From Acidobacteriota bacterium (GTDB lineage: Bacteria; Acidobacteriota; UBA6911; RPQK01; JAJDTT01), in assembly GCA_965263035.1 (NCBI GenBank), contig OZ253580.1, positions 4,224,001-4,288,000 of the forward strand: DNA of 64,000 bases. Reading direction: 5' to 3'. Each line of letters begins with the position of its first letter. The stretch's first letter is position 1. The position numbers and the translations under genes are program-made. This document shows, one piece after another, positions 10,090-52,877 of the stretch. The notes beneath the pieces were generated by a model. It made no database searches. It saw only the letters and a program-made list of their open reading frames with translations, and was not told the DNA's origin.

Positions 10090-10233
10090 GGGCGACATCC
10101 TTGTCGCCCATTGGGAGGTGACTTTCTTGTCGCCTGCTCTTCTTTGTCGCTACCGGATGCTGCGGCCGGAAAGTGTAGAGTGGGGACTCCGTCCCCCCTG
10201 CCCCCCTGGTCGGCGACAAGAAAGTCGCCGCTC
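10090..10233. repeat. Cluster of REP-like hairpins (family 1, GGCGAC-N6-GTCGCC-GCTCC)
   Basis: Hairpins at ~10090-10109, 10116-10135 and 10211-10233; relatives at 20041, 20705, 25900, 37247, 37274, 40079, 41662, 52608. Confidence 0.8.
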
Positions 10234-10863
10234 GTGCGCCCGACATGGGCTGTATCTAAGGGATGAAAGATCCCAAGGGAGGTGATGGGACCAACCCTAG
10301 CCGAACCGCAAGGCGTAGCCGCGAGGTGAAGCTGAAGGAAGCGGAAGGCAAACCCACGACCGCAGGAACACGAACCGGCAGCGAGGCCGGGTGCGGGCGG
10401 TGAGCTGGCGAGCAACAGCGAAACCCGAACCCCATCCAGACGTACCAGGTAGAGTCGGGCGGCCCGGGGGGAAAGATGCAGCACCTTACTCGGGGAGATC
10501 TCAAGGGTGAGAGCCTTTGAGAAGTCAGCAGAGGTCATAGTAGCGAAGAAGCCGGATAATGCCGGTGGAGCGAAGGACCGAAGGAGTCGGACGGGCCCTA
10601 TGGTGGACTCGTCAGCGGGATCGCAAATACCTCCGAAAACGGGGCGGGGGGAGGCCCCTCGGACCCGGCATGGAAGGCCCACGGGTGGAGCCCGGCAAGC
10701 CGGAAGGGCGGAGATCAAGTCTCAGCGGCGGCGAAAACCGGAAAGAAAGGCCCTGTACGAGGCTCGAAAGAGCCTCGGGTGACTCCAACCGCCGGATACT
10801 GAAAACGGTACGTCCGGTGGTGTGGGAGGGTGCGGGGGCGCAATCCCCTGCACTCGACCCGAT
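10234..10863 (+). mobile_element. ORF-less class IIC group II intron, copy 1 (630 nt)
   Basis: 5' GTGCGCCCGACATGGG; domain I landmarks (CTGAAGGAAGCGG, AGGAACACGAAC); domain V with CGC triad at ~10788-10821; domain VI ending ACCCGAT; no RT ORF. Confidence 0.92.
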
Positions 10864-10923
10864 CTCGCCTATCGTCTTGCAGCCTGTCTTGTTCCGTCAG
10901 TATCGTAGTCGGAGGAGGACGTC

Positions 10924-12786
10924 ATGCAGCAGAGGGGATTCCGCAGCAGCATCACCACCCAAGGGCGGCGCATGGCCGGGGCCCGGGCTCTCTGGAGGGC
11001 CACCGGCATGAAGACGGAGGACTTCCGGAAACCCATCATCGCCATCGCCAACTCGTTTGCCCAATTCGTCCCCGGGCACGTTCACCTGCATCCCCTCGGC
11101 CAGAGGGTCAAACAGGTCATCGACGCCAGCGGCGGGTACGGAGTGGAGTTCAACACCATCGCCCTGGACGACGGCATCGCCATGGGACACGACGGCATGC
11201 TCTACTCCCTCCCCAGCCGCGAGCTGATCGCCGACAGCGTGGAGTACATGGTGAACGGCCACAAGGCGGACGCCCTGGTCTGCATTTCCAACTGCGACAA
11301 GATCACTCCGGGAATGCTCCTGGGCGCTCTGCGGCTGAACCTGCCCACGATTTTCGTCTCGGGAGGCCCCATGGAGGCCGGCCGGGCCCTGCTGGCTTCG
11401 GGTCCGGCCAAGCTGGATCTGGTCGATTCCATGGTGGCCGCCGGAGACAGCCGGATCAGCGACGCCGAGGTCCTGAAGATGGAGGAGGAGGCCTGTCCCA
11501 CCTGCGGGTCCTGCTCGGGCATGTTCACGGCCAACAGCATGAACTGTCTCAACGAAGCCATCGGCTTGGCCCTGCCGGGCAACGGGACCATCCTCGCGAC
11601 CCACTCACTGCGCTGGCAGCTCTTCGAGCGGGCCGCCAGGCGCATCGTCCAGATGGCCCGCGCCTATTACCTGGAGGGAGACGAAACGGTGCTGCCCCGG
11701 AGCATCGCGACCTTCGAAGCCTTCGAGAACGCCATGAGTCTGGACATCGCCATGGGGGGTTCCACCAACACGGTGCTGCACATCCTGGCCATGGCGCACG
11801 AGGCGGGCGTGGAGTTCACCATGGCCGACATCGACCGCCTCTCGCGGCAGGTGCCCTGTATCTGCAAGGTGGCGCCGGCCACGGGGAAGTTTCATCTGGA
11901 GGACGTGGCCCGGGCCGGCGGGATCCCAACTATCCTGGGAGAGCTCCAGCGCGCCGGCCAGATCCACTCCGGGGTGGGAACCGTCTCCGGGGACGGCATG
12001 GGAGACATGATTCGCAAGAATGACCTTCGCGACGGCAACGGGTCGGTATCCGATTTCGCCCGCCGACGGGCGCTGGCGGCTCCCGGAGGGGTCCGCTCCC
12101 GGGAGGCGTTTTCTCAGGAGAACTATTATCAAGGGTCCGACGTCGACTCGAGGGAAGGCTGCATCCGATCGGCCGAGCACGCCTATTCCCAGGATGGAGG
12201 GCTGGCCGTCCTGTACGGCAATCTGGCCGAGGACGGTTGCATAGTGAAGACGGCAGGGGTGGACGAGTCGATCTGGGTCTTCCAGGGGCCGGCCCGGGTC
12301 TTCGAGTCCCAGGAGGAAGCCTGCGACGGGATCCTGGGCGGACGGGTCGAGGCCGGTGACGTGGTGGTGATCCGGTACGAGGGGCCCAAAGGCGGTCCGG
12401 GAATGCAGGAGATGCTCTATCCGACCTCCTACATCAAGGCCCGGCAGTTGGGCGCCAAATGCGCGCTGCTGACGGACGGCCGTTTCAGCGGCGGAACCAG
12501 CGGATTGTCCATCGGCCACGTCTCTCCCGAAGCGGCTGAGGGTGGGGCCATCGCGCTGGTGGAAGAGGGAGACCTCATCCGCGTCCACATTCCCGAACGG
12601 ACGCTGGAATTGGCGGTCCCCGAGGAGGAGTTGGCGCGCCGCCGCCGTCGCATGGAGGCTCGCGGTCAGGAAGCCTACCGTCCGCGCGACCGTCACCGTC
12701 CCATCTCCCAGGCCCTGGCCGCCTACGCCGCCCTGACCACCAGCGCCGCTCGGGGCGCCGTCCGTGACATCTCCCAGCTCCGATGA
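10924..12786 (+). CDS. ilvD: Dihydroxy-acid dehydratase
   Basis: [56 protein letters not shown]. Confidence 0.97.
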
Positions 12787-51470: not shown

Positions 51471-51534
51471 ACCTCCCCGAATCCGGCTTCGTGATCCGGC
51501 CCGGTCAGAAAATGGGACTGGTATCCTTGCCCGC

Positions 51535-52569
51535 ATGACGCCCTCTCCTTCCGCAGAAAGGATCCTCCGGGACTCGATCGTCATCGACGCCCACGGTCAT
51601 TTCTTGGACCTGGCCGCCACGTCGCGCCTCCAACTGCATGAGTCCCTGGGCGGGCTCACCGACGTGCCCCTGATGCGCGCCGGCGGCGTGTCCGCCCAGT
51701 TGACGGCCTGCTGGGTGCCCGACGTCCGGATCGGTGGACCCCACGGCAGCCGGCAGCCCTTTCGGGACGTCATGAAGATGTTGGATTACGTCCACCGGGA
51801 GTTGGATGGAGAAGCGGGGGACCACGTGGTTCTGGCCGGGACCGCCGGGGACATCGAAGGGGCGGTGGCACAGTCGAAGACAGCCTTCGTGTTGGGGCTC
51901 GAAGGGGGAGACGCGCTGCAGGGTGATCCGGATCGACTCCGGACGCTGTACCTGGCGGGCCTGCGCCATGTCTGCCTCGTCCACGAGGGACGGAACGCCA
52001 TTGCCGTGGCGACGCAGGTCTGGGAGGGGCAGACCATGCGCGCCTACGACCCCAGGATCGATGCCCCGGGAGGACTGAGTGCCGTCGGCAGGCGGATCGT
52101 CCGCGAGATGAACCGGCTGGGCATGCTGGTGGACGTCACCCACATGATCGAGGAGAGCTTCTGGGACACGCTGGAGGTCTCGACTGCGCCCGTGATCGCC
52201 TCCCACGGGAATGCGCGTTCTCTGCGGGATACCGTAAGGCACTTGACCGATGAGCAGATCCGGGCCGTCGCCGACACCGGAGGGATCGTCTGTCCCAGTC
52301 CCTTTCCGCTCGGCCCCACCCGGGAGCTGCCCAGTCTGGAGATGATGCTCCGGCATGTCGATCACATGGTCCGTCTGGTGGGCCCCGACCACGTCGGTTT
52401 CGGAACCGACTTCCTGGAGCAGACGGGATCCCGGCCCGCCGGTTTCGGGGACATTGGCGAGACACCGCGATTCGTCGAGGGGCTGCTGGAACTCGGATAC
52501 GGCTCCACGGCGATTCGGAAAATCATGGGCGGCAATTTCTTGCGGGTCTTCCGGCAGGTCGCGGGTTGA
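51535..52569 (+). CDS. Membrane dipeptidase (M19) family
   Basis: IDAH, LEGG, MNRLGMLVDVTH, ASHGN, GFGTDF, GGNFLRV. Confidence 0.9.
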   Translation: MTPSPSAERILRDSIVIDAHGHFLDLAATSRLQLHESLGGLTDVPLMRAGGVSAQLTACWVPDVRIGGPHGSRQPFRDVMKMLDYVHRELDGEAGDHVVLAGTAGDIEGAVAQSKTAFVLGLEGGDALQGDPDRLRTLYLAGLRHVCLVHEGRNAIAVATQVWEGQTMRAYDPRIDAPGGLSAVGRRIVREMNRLGMLVDVTHMIEESFWDTLEVSTAPVIASHGNARSLRDTVRHLTDEQIRAVADTGGIVCPSPFPLGPTRELPSLEMMLRHVDHMVRLVGPDHVGFGTDFLEQTGSRPAGFGDIGETPRFVEGLLELGYGSTAIRKIMGGNFLRVFRQVAG

Positions 52570-52877
52570 CTAGGAGGGGGGACTTTTAGTCCTCCATTCC
52601 CCGGAGTCGGCGGCTAGAAACCGCCGCTCCAGCCGCCGCTCCCAAATTCCCCCACCAACGCGTTTTTTGTCATTAATAGTAAAAACTCGGCCACTATTTA
52701 CTATAGATAGAAAATAGTTCGCCAATGACTCGAACCCTGTCTCCCGTTTCCTCGATTTGTGATCGGTCTGGGATTTGAGATTCAGGATCCAATTCGAAAT
52801 TCTCCCATGGGGGTGTTACTCTCCAAATCAAGTCTGGATAGCCGGTTCCAGTGGGGCGGAGACAAAGGGAGCGATAC

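Follow-up and report, generated by a model that had tools for sequence, protein, structure and literature searches.

Here we describe a stretch of bacterial DNA in which the tail of a repetitive extragenic palindrome (REP) superfamily appears to serve as a landing site for two unrelated mobile elements, a group IIC intron and an IS621-like element of the IS110 family—a reading to which we assign a probability of roughly 85%. The stretch, hereafter the window, comprises 64,000 nucleotides (nt), positions 4,224,001-4,288,000 of the forward strand of contig OZ253580.1 (GCA_965263035.1), and comes from an Acidobacteriota bacterium (GTDB lineage Bacteria; Acidobacteriota; UBA6911; RPQK01; JAJDTT01) whose genome of 6.198 Mb, with 62% GC, is a single contig. 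The window holds two intron copies without an open reading frame (ORF) and one IS110 copy, all at the REP tail G-CT-C^C, where the caret marks a junction; relative to the CT core of the IS110 element, the intron site, GCTC^C, is shifted by one base in the 3' direction. A preliminary description of the window had proposed this geometry, and had held in addition that the bridge RNA of the IS110 element and the exon-binding sequence (EBS) of the ribozyme each fit the same tail. The window junctions confirm the first claim; the second is borne out in that both guides can be located and both covary with REP variants.

The REP superfamily is abundant in this genome. Perfect 6-bp hairpins followed by CTCC number 714, which puts this tail at the top of all 256 four-letter tails (median 143.5). 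When REP hairpins are counted by stem and loop only, ignoring the tail, there are 484; their tails are GCTCC (178), CCTCC (116), GCTCG (20, the introns), GCTTG (10, the IS110 element), and minor variants. Empty units with REP-type loops number 478, with 272 of the GCTCC type, and the commonest units are CGGCGG-TTGGAAA-CCGCCG, CGGCGG-CAAGAAAG-CCGCCG, CGGCGA-CAAGAAAG-TCGCCG, and GGGCGA-CAAGAAAG-TCGCCC. The units have the characteristics of REPs—short imperfect palindromes in more than 100 copies, found in tandem and composite arrays—and extragenic placement was seen for the 12 window units, all of which lie between ORFs with family matches. In the window, the pattern GGCGAC-N6-GTCGCCGCTC (up to two mismatches) has nine matches where 0.34 are expected, and none of 100 shuffles reached nine. 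REPs with AAGAAA and TGGAAA loops share stems and tail, lie side by side in arrays, and are each used by both elements, which supports the earlier view that they are two loop variants of one REP group.

Both elements are enriched at these hairpins across the whole genome, as the preliminary description had anticipated. Of the 26,037 unoccupied GCTCC sites, just 311 (1.2%) have a perfect 6-bp hairpin before them; allowing up to one mismatch raises this to 1,952 (7.5%). By comparison, the intron junctions follow a perfect hairpin in 20 of 24 cases and a hairpin with at most one mismatch in all 24, and the IS110 left junctions do so, under the latter definition, in 10 of 14. All occupancy and strand statistics given here assume independent insertion events. 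The REPs could instead be products of the mobile elements, such as excision footprints or decayed ends, rather than an independent family; after all, both elements have junctions whose sequence is that of the REP tail. This is extremely unlikely, however—empty units (478) far outnumber introns (24) and IS110 junctions (14), REPs show no similarity to the ends of the two elements except for the target bases, and the genome contains genes resembling REP-associated tyrosine transposases (RAYTs) that are flanked by REPs.

The intron family comprises, by blastn against the genome, 19 intact 630-nt copies (96-100% identical), three interrupted copies, and two full-length copies of 1,848 nt; the ORF-less form thus accounts for 22 of the 24, and the other two carry an intron-encoded protein (IEP). 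Rfam recognises group II intron ribozymes in the window at about 10.3-10.6 and 20.1-20.4 kb. Intron copy 1 matches the Rfam families RF02001 (81.4 bits) and RF01998 (47.2 bits), while its match to RF00029, covering domains V and VI, scores 38.9 bits—slightly below the gathering score of 40—and ends exactly at 10863. The fold has a z-score of -4.24, the ends are those of a group II ribozyme (GTGCG at the start and GAT at the finish), and both window copies are followed by a 3' exon that begins with C. The IEP is 409 aa long, carries RVT_1 and GIIM only, with no endonuclease domain, and matches TIGR04416 with 363 bits (cut-off 300). Its best solved relatives are the reverse transcriptase (RT) of GsI-IIC (E 1.6e-133) and then the group II intron RT/maturase 7uim (E 2.6e-101). 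Domain content and kinship to the GsI-IIC RT therefore place the intron in class C (IIC); the ORF-less copies are presumably mobilised in trans by the resident IEP. One metatranscriptome contig has a joint that skips exactly 10234-10863 (GT..AT; side of 33 letters), and the same joint occurs in one contig from a run of unrecorded kind (side of 27 letters); the joint confirms the intron boundaries. Among the eight genomes of the same genus that we searched, five contain the intron and one, G002, has no match; assembly completeness varies among these relatives, and their kinship makes them non-independent.

The target of the intron is the same at nearly every copy: the 5' junction reads hairpin-CGCTC followed by GT(G/A)CG in 24 of 24, and a C follows the 3' end in 23 of 24. 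This is the target expected of a IIC intron, with a 4-nt intron-binding sequence 1 (IBS1), a 1-nt IBS3, no IBS2, and a stem-loop directly upstream at all 24 junctions; IIC introns are described as inserting after DNA stem-loops with a 3-4 bp IBS1 plus IBS3 (PMC1702495, PMC10190682, PMC4424553). Twenty-two of the 24 sites are of REP type, and the stems vary among sites (GGCGAC, GGCGGC, GGGGAC, GGGGGT, GGCCAT). The copy at 436206-436835 lies antisense within a 365-aa alcohol-dehydrogenase-like ORF, which it probably disrupts, at a non-REP chance hairpin, GGCCATC-AGGTC-GATGGCC, followed by GCTC^C. The varied stems and this non-REP copy indicate that the intron reads shape plus GCTC^C, and not REP identity. 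Could the hairpin be cargo instead, as part of the end of the mobile unit, or because a RAYT moves REP and intron together, so that the association reflects hitch-hiking and not targeting? In its favour, 11 of 24 intron copies share a further module of about 35 nt upstream (GTAGAGTGGGGACTCCGTCCCC...). Yet that module belongs to a composite REP (GGGGACTCCGTCCCC, a C-rich spacer, and a REP unit) that is found 33 times without an insert and twice with the IS110 element; stems and loops vary among sites while intron copies stay near-identical; sequence further upstream and all 3' flanks are unrelated; one intron sits at the non-REP hairpin within a gene; and the contig joint removes exactly 630 nt while the hairpin stays. 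We consider the cargo explanation very unlikely, and continue with targeting.

The IS110 element of the window encodes the sole IS110-type gene found there, a recombinase with domains PF01548 (4.8e-22) and PF02371 (4.6e-19) that matches NF033542, 'IS110 family RNA-guided transposase', with 206 bits (cut-off 140); its best solved relatives are ISCro4 (8e-36) and IS621 (1.6e-32). On the minus strand the insertion site reads ...CGGCGG-CTGGAAA-CCGCCG-CT^TGTCTGTTTAAATGG...CAACATGGATA-CT^CC..., with junctions ...GGCGGCTGGAAACCGCCG-CT^TGTCTG... and ...GGATA-CT^CC, so that CT is present at both ends; the ends can be fixed from the empty form, which an uninterrupted paralogous site at 37240-37296 displays. 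The genome has 12 complete copies, along with fragments; together they supply 14 left and 14 right junctions, and the CT core is present at all 14 of each (CT^TGTCTG on the left, GGATA-CT^ on the right). The 10 left junctions that lie at a hairpin read hairpin-CCGCCG-CT^TGTCTG. No terminal inverted repeats were seen in the element, though no formal search for them was made. Its left end is present in six of the eight related genomes, with no match in G002.

The 180-nt left end of the element is predicted to encode a bridge RNA, in which we have located the guides. It folds with a z-score of -4.84, and its parts follow the order expected for a bridge RNA: a 5' stem-loop, in which two compensatory changes occur; a stem enclosing ACCGCCGC and ATGGGAG; and then ATGGATAC and GACAAG. 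The left target guide (LTG), ACCGCCGC, runs in the same sense as the left target, extended by the core C, and the right target guide (RTG), ATGGGAG, is complementary to CTCCCAT. The left donor guide (LDG), ATGGATAC, corresponds to the element's right end, again with the core C, and the right donor guide (RDG), GACAAG, is complementary to CTTGTC at the left end; together the two donor guides match the circle junction GGATA-CT-TGTCTG. A scan of 40000-41800 against Rfam (E up to 10) returned no bridge-RNA family, only weak unrelated miRNA and sRNA matches (best E 0.15). The rules of bridge-RNA guidance, as well as the insertion of IS621 in REPs, are available from the published account of that system (PMC11208160).

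The guides of both elements change with their targets. For the intron, the GCTC tail goes with the loop GCGAGCAA (EBS1 GAGC) in the window and at loci L001 and L009, and the CCTC tail with the loop GCGAGGAA (EBS1 GAGG) at L006, L007, and L008. In the host genome, all 21 intron copies that hold the EBS1 loop have GAGC, and the intron junctions among tail-independent REP hairpins follow GCTC in 20 of 20 cases and CCTC in none, with 116 empty CCTCC tails available. For the IS110 element there are three LTG alleles: ACCGCCGC pairs off with the target ACCGCCGCT, also in relatives at CCGCCG-arm REPs (L016, L023); ACCGACGC with the target ACCGACGCT, in three copies of the host genome at ACCGACG-CT in a different small repeat; and GTCGCCGCT with the target GTCGCCGCT, in relatives (L029, L017, L024) at GGCGAC-AAGAAA-GTCGCC-GCT REPs. 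One could argue that no adaptation is involved—that two fixed specificities happened to match an abundant repeat, with guides that do not track it—as the shared pentanucleotide is short and both classes are predisposed, IIC introns to any stem-loop plus about 4 nt and IS110 elements to REPs, where they are often found. Coincidence of this kind is nevertheless improbable, given that EBS1 switches between GAGC and GAGG with the REP variant in sister species, that the bridge-RNA left guide likewise varies as three alleles, and that in one related genome, G004, both elements occupy the single variant GGCGAC-AGGAAA-GTCGCC-GCT(C) (intron L009, IS110 L024).

The preliminary description had suggested a shared safe-harbour niche, and this stands in part: the tail and the composite REP are common to both elements, but their niches differ by stem, loop, and strand. 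For the 3' arm CCGCCG, the counts of empty, intron, and IS110 sites are 142, 9, and 10; for TCGCCG they are 76, 11, and 0, and for CCCCCG 24, 2, and 0. The IS110 element is thus confined to the arm spelled by its guide (Fisher p 0.007), whereas the intron is not arm-limited (p 0.12)—the niches overlap yet differ, the IS110 element reading stem sequence (the CCGCCG arm) and the intron accepting any stem. The loops of the empty units are AAGAAA (131), TGGAAA (119), and TTGAAAA (22); intron sites have AAGAAA in 19 cases, TGGAAA in one, TTGAAAA in two, and others in two, a bias (AAGAAA to TGGAAA 19:1, against 131:119 among empty sites) with p 9.8e-5. The 10 IS110 hairpin sites have AAGAAA in four, TGGAAA in five, and another loop in one. 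The AAGAAA and TGGAAA loops are each used by both elements, with an intron at a TGGAAA-loop REP (genome position 37,524) and four IS110 copies at AAGAAA-loop REPs.

Strand separates the two elements as well. The replication origin was placed at the cumulative GC-skew minimum, 2,873,575, which adjoins dnaA at 2,872,067; the terminus was assumed at about 5.6 Mb, in the region of the skew maximum, and one intron, at 5.70 Mb, lies near it. On this basis 19 of 24 introns are on the lagging-strand template, compared with 122 of 272 empty GCTCC REPs (Fisher p 0.0013), and the IS110 junctions, with 6 of 14, show no strand bias. Endonuclease-less introns are described in a review as priming at replication forks (PMC4424553). 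The strand pattern fits a fork-primed intron of this type and a recombination of duplex DNA by the IS110 element.

Competition and mutual exclusion had also been raised as possibilities. No doubly occupied or nested site was found among the 24 intron and 14 IS110 junction sets, and the closest that an intron comes to an IS110 element is 4,527 bp. Once the IS110 element has inserted, GCTT comes after the hairpin and no hairpin adjoins the other junction; once the intron has inserted, the right target reads CTCGT, not CTCC(C/T). Each insertion destroys the recognition sequence of the other, and mutual exclusion follows as a logical consequence only. The supply of sites is not limiting, because 272 suitable REPs are still empty. 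With most sites empty, the lack of a site holding both has no bearing on competition between intron and IS110 element, which occupancy neither shows nor excludes.

These observations suggest the following mechanism. The REP unit is a GC hairpin of 6-7 bp with the tail (G/C)CTCC, and such units often form tandem or composite arrays. The intron would recognise the DNA stem-loop by its shape, with EBS1 GAGC pairing with IBS1 GCTC and EBS3 with the next C, and would reverse-splice between C and C, favouring the strand that is the lagging-strand template. For the IS110 element, the LTG would pair with the 3' stem arm and core (ACCGCCG-CT) and the RTG with CTCC(C/T); recombination would take place, on either strand, at the CT core, which precedes the intron site by one base on the 5' side. 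As REPs are intergenic and abundant, they would provide many harmless sites for both elements, a fitness rationale that we infer.

RAYT genes are the usual source of REP families. In agreement with the preliminary description, a profile search of the genome places no match to the Y1 transposase family of the RAYTs (PF01797) in the 64-kb window; the only two matches genome-wide are at 2.48 and 3.48 Mb, with 39 and 36 bits, above the Pfam cut-off. One of these RAYT-like genes encodes 224 aa (2,482,813-2,483,487, minus strand) and has REPs on both flanks; the second copy is an ORF of only 127 aa. An IS110 copy, 2483504-2485058, sits in a REP flanking the 224-aa gene; its right end lies some 17 bp upstream of the start codon, and the expression of this putative REP-spreading gene might be affected. 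Directly 3' of the stop codon on the minus strand (genome positions ~2,482,220-2,482,820), the sequence TGTGCGCCAGGCTAACTGG...GGTGAAAGTCCG... resembles the 5' portion of a different group II intron.

Several points weigh against the landing-site interpretation, or against parts of it. The case as a whole is built on comparing sequences—mobility, splicing, and recombination are read from junctions and guides, and activity in trans and the chemistry of recombination are inferred. Four of the 14 IS110 left junctions have no hairpin, three of them lying in another small repeat via an altered guide. The fit of the RTG is looser than that of the LTG: CTCCT is present in two of six reference-type copies, where GGGAG needs a G-T pair, and one copy (right end 2,494,773) has CTCTC at the right target. 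Identity between ORF-less and IEP-bearing introns reaches only about 91-92%, over nt 1-516, for which reason mobilisation in trans by the resident IEP remains an assumption. The contig joint, with its short sides of 33 and 27 letters, may represent an empty-site allele and not spliced RNA. The best NCBIfam match of the RAYT-like genes, REP_Tyr_transpos ('REP-associated tyrosine transposase'), scores 73.9 and 75.6 bits, below its cut-off of 80. Finally, our model explains neither the loop preference of the intron nor its excess at the composite REP (11 of 24 introns compared with 33 of 272 empty units, p 1.4e-4).

Much of the background to these findings is established: the targeting of REPs by IS110 elements (IS621, ISPpu9 and ISPpu10, ISPa11), its basis in bridge RNA, and the targeting of stem-loops by IIC introns. 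Like IS621, ISPpu9, ISPpu10, and ISPa11, the IS110 element described here has a DEDD plus Tnp_20 recombinase, a non-coding left end with two guide loops, a CT core, no inverted repeats seen at its ends, and a fixed insertion position in REPs. It shares with ISPpu10 a hairpin directly 5' of the paired bases; for ISPpu10, a preprint that describes a 'sequence-structure dual-match' reports that the hairpin is needed. It differs from the IS621 group in its host lineage and its REP, in a guide whose pairing partner is the REP stem's own 3' arm, and in three natural guide alleles that each match their own target. The intron resembles the IIC introns B.h.I1, GsI-IIC, and E.r. IIC in its endonuclease-less RT/maturase, 4-nt IBS1, 1-nt IBS3, absence of IBS2, and upstream stem-loop; however, those introns use terminator stem-loops, while the sites here are REP units without a T-run and without a spacer between stem and IBS1, and 22 of 24 copies are ORF-less. 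ORF-less introns are called rare in bacteria in a review (PMC4424553).

Other comparisons are instructive. The IIC-attC introns, as that review presents them (PMC4424553), likewise form a IIC lineage that has specialised on a DNA hairpin which is repeated and linked to a recombinase, and not on terminators; the target in our case is a REP that accompanies a RAYT-like gene and not attC, and no integron was seen in the window, though no genome-wide search was made. The same review describes ORF-less group II introns of Thermosynechococcus elongatus that proliferated beside IEP-bearing relatives (PMC4424553). The present genome is similar in holding many ORF-less copies together with IEP-bearing ones. 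To our knowledge, the Thermosynechococcus elongatus introns are not of class IIC and do not target REPs. The nearest precedent is Pseudomonas putida KT2440, for which Tobes and Pareja (2006) list ISPpu9 (7/7), ISPpu10 (7/7), and a group II intron (2/9) as REP-associated (PMC1525189, Table 1). As here, a single genome thus has REPs that are linked both to IS110 elements and to a group II intron (PMC1525189); the intron link is weak there (2/9), and we found no description of an overlap at the level of bases, whereas here 22 of 24 introns are at REPs and the two sites are one base apart. Supplements aside, we found no account in the literature of an intron and an IS110 element on overlapping bases of one REP, that table being the closest. 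What is added here is modestly new: the one-base offset on a shared tail, the covariation of both guides, the partition by stem and strand, and the 22-copy ORF-less IIC family.

The coordinates of the features discussed are collected in Table 1. Beside the REPs listed, the window has six copies of another small palindromic repeat (39575-47208, consensus ~CAGAGAAGGTGACTGTCCCCTTCTCAC) that is unrelated to the REP family studied. At 37182-39341, 41689-43725, and 47285-47824 lie two full and one partial paralogous genes in a row, 87-89% identical in DNA; their sole Pfam match, to an esterase-like family, is sub-threshold, REP units precede each gene, and the IS110 element occupies the REP ahead of the second copy. 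These blocks (37.2-39.4, 41.7-43.7, and 47.3-47.8 kb) were considered as mobile elements and rejected as ordinary duplicated genes. A search for a third occupant of the REP tail, by scanning the tails after the 484 hairpins, was also negative: recurrent non-CTCC tails were REP arrays, and one further candidate was a false match inside an unrelated 14-copy element. An unrelated repeat of 103 copies (...CACATACTCCCGGTATGCTCC..., e.g. 443206-443290) has a GCTCC end after a weak, AT-rich 5-bp hairpin and carries no intron; it is a natural negative control for intron insertion.

Table 1. Positions of the intron copies, the IS110 element, and REP units in the window (numbered from its first letter).
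Feature	Position	Strand	Basis
Empty REP GGGCGA-CAAGGATG-TCGCCC + CTCC (CCTCC-tail variant)	10086..10109	-	
REP hairpin CGGCGAC-AAGAAA-GTCGCCG + CTC, 5' exon of intron copy 1, IBS1 GCTC	10211..10233	+	
ORF-less group IIC intron copy 1, 630 nt, GTGCG...CCCGAT	10234..10863	+	Rfam, genome copies, contig joint
EBS1 GAGC in loop GCGAGCAA of Id3 hairpin	10410..10413	+	RF02001 alignment, covariation
Intron domains V and VI	10787..10863	+	RF00029, 38.9 bits, E 5.2e-6
REP hairpin + CTC, 5' exon of intron copy 2	20041..20063	+	
ORF-less group IIC intron copy 2, 630 nt	20064..20693	+	Rfam, genome copies
Empty REP CGGCGA-CAGGAACG-TCGCCG-CTCC, 11 nt 3' of intron copy 2	20705..20728	+	
Empty REP GGCGAC-AAGAAA-GTCGCC-GCTCC	25900..25923	-	
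Two tandem empty REPs, uninterrupted paralogue of the IS110 insertion site	37247..37296	-	
Empty REP GGGGAC-AAGAAT-GTCCCC-GCTCC	39414..39437	-	
Empty REP directly downstream of the IS110 right end	40079..40101	-	
IS110-family element including CT core at each end (body 40110-41659)	40108..41661	-	Junctions, paralogous empty site
IS110 DEDD recombinase, 315 aa	40532..41479	-	PF01548, PF02371, NF033542, PDB matches
Left non-coding end, predicted bridge RNA, 180 nt	41480..41659	-	Sequence, fold, covariation
Predicted guides	LTG 41595->41588, RTG 41570->41564, LDG 41530->41523, RDG 41502->41497	-	
REP hairpin CGGCGG-CTGGAAA-CCGCCG occupied by IS110; CT core 41661-41660	41662..41680	-	
Empty REP CGGCGG-CTAGAAA-CCGCCG-CTCC	52608..52630	+	

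The intron and IS110 families show some further features. Three ORF-less introns are interrupted, two by a 1,783-bp insertion sequence (IS) and one by a 4.7-kb composite, and never by the IS110 element. The 1,783-bp IS (about 11 copies; 3923461-3925242 and 3067891-3069672) sits inside introns at nt 349 and nt 263-275, and two such cases are far above the expectation from intron DNA that makes up 0.25% of the genome. The window also contains, at 28022-30608, a block that includes a large serine recombinase of 694 aa (28059-30143, minus strand); another interrupted intron holds a copy with 99.9% identity (genome ~5,181,160-5,183,746), and given this near-identical copy inside an intron, the block is itself a mobile element. 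Contigs from two metatranscriptome runs show, over 10524-10605 of the window (a conserved intron segment, the RF01998 region), a summed depth about 10-20 times as high as elsewhere in the intron, and loose contig ends at 10538 and 10580 indicate that other sequences share a 43-nt intron core. The three IS110 copies with the ACCGACGC guide lie at 653129-654686, 1125869-1127345, and 3695500-3696979 in the repeat ...GTCACCGACG-CT-CCCTAAAATAAGGGGAAC..., two empty copies of which are found at 4,173,844 and 1,954,209.

A broader, tentative interpretation is that the REP tail is a co-evolving landing pad for two systems of the type 'DNA hairpin plus short RNA guide', in which EBS1 and the bridge guide would track the locally abundant REP variant throughout the genus, and the niche would be split by mechanism—the intron using hairpins exposed on the lagging-strand template and the IS110 element duplex sites, on either strand, with one stem sequence. 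We hold this to be possible, with the odds somewhat against it. If it is true, the 22-copy ORF-less intron would be a non-autonomous retroelement comparable to a miniature inverted-repeat transposable element, its spread limited by REP supply; and if the IS110 element depends on the hairpin too, as has been reported for ISPpu10, the same two-part recognition logic would have arisen convergently in a retroelement and in a DNA recombinase. The genome offers a natural side-by-side case of two RNA-guided insertion systems on overlapping bases of one repeat, in which hairpin-plus-guide recognition can be compared between a retroelement and a recombinase. The natural guide variants, EBS1 GAGC/GAGG and the three bridge-RNA target guides, are ready-made retargeting experiments. 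For annotation, the 630-nt units, which form an unusually large ORF-less group IIC intron family for a bacterium, and the IS110 left ends should be treated as structured RNAs and not as ordinary intergenic repeats. More generally, the system provides a route to asking how REP families shape, and are shaped by, the specificity of their resident mobile elements.

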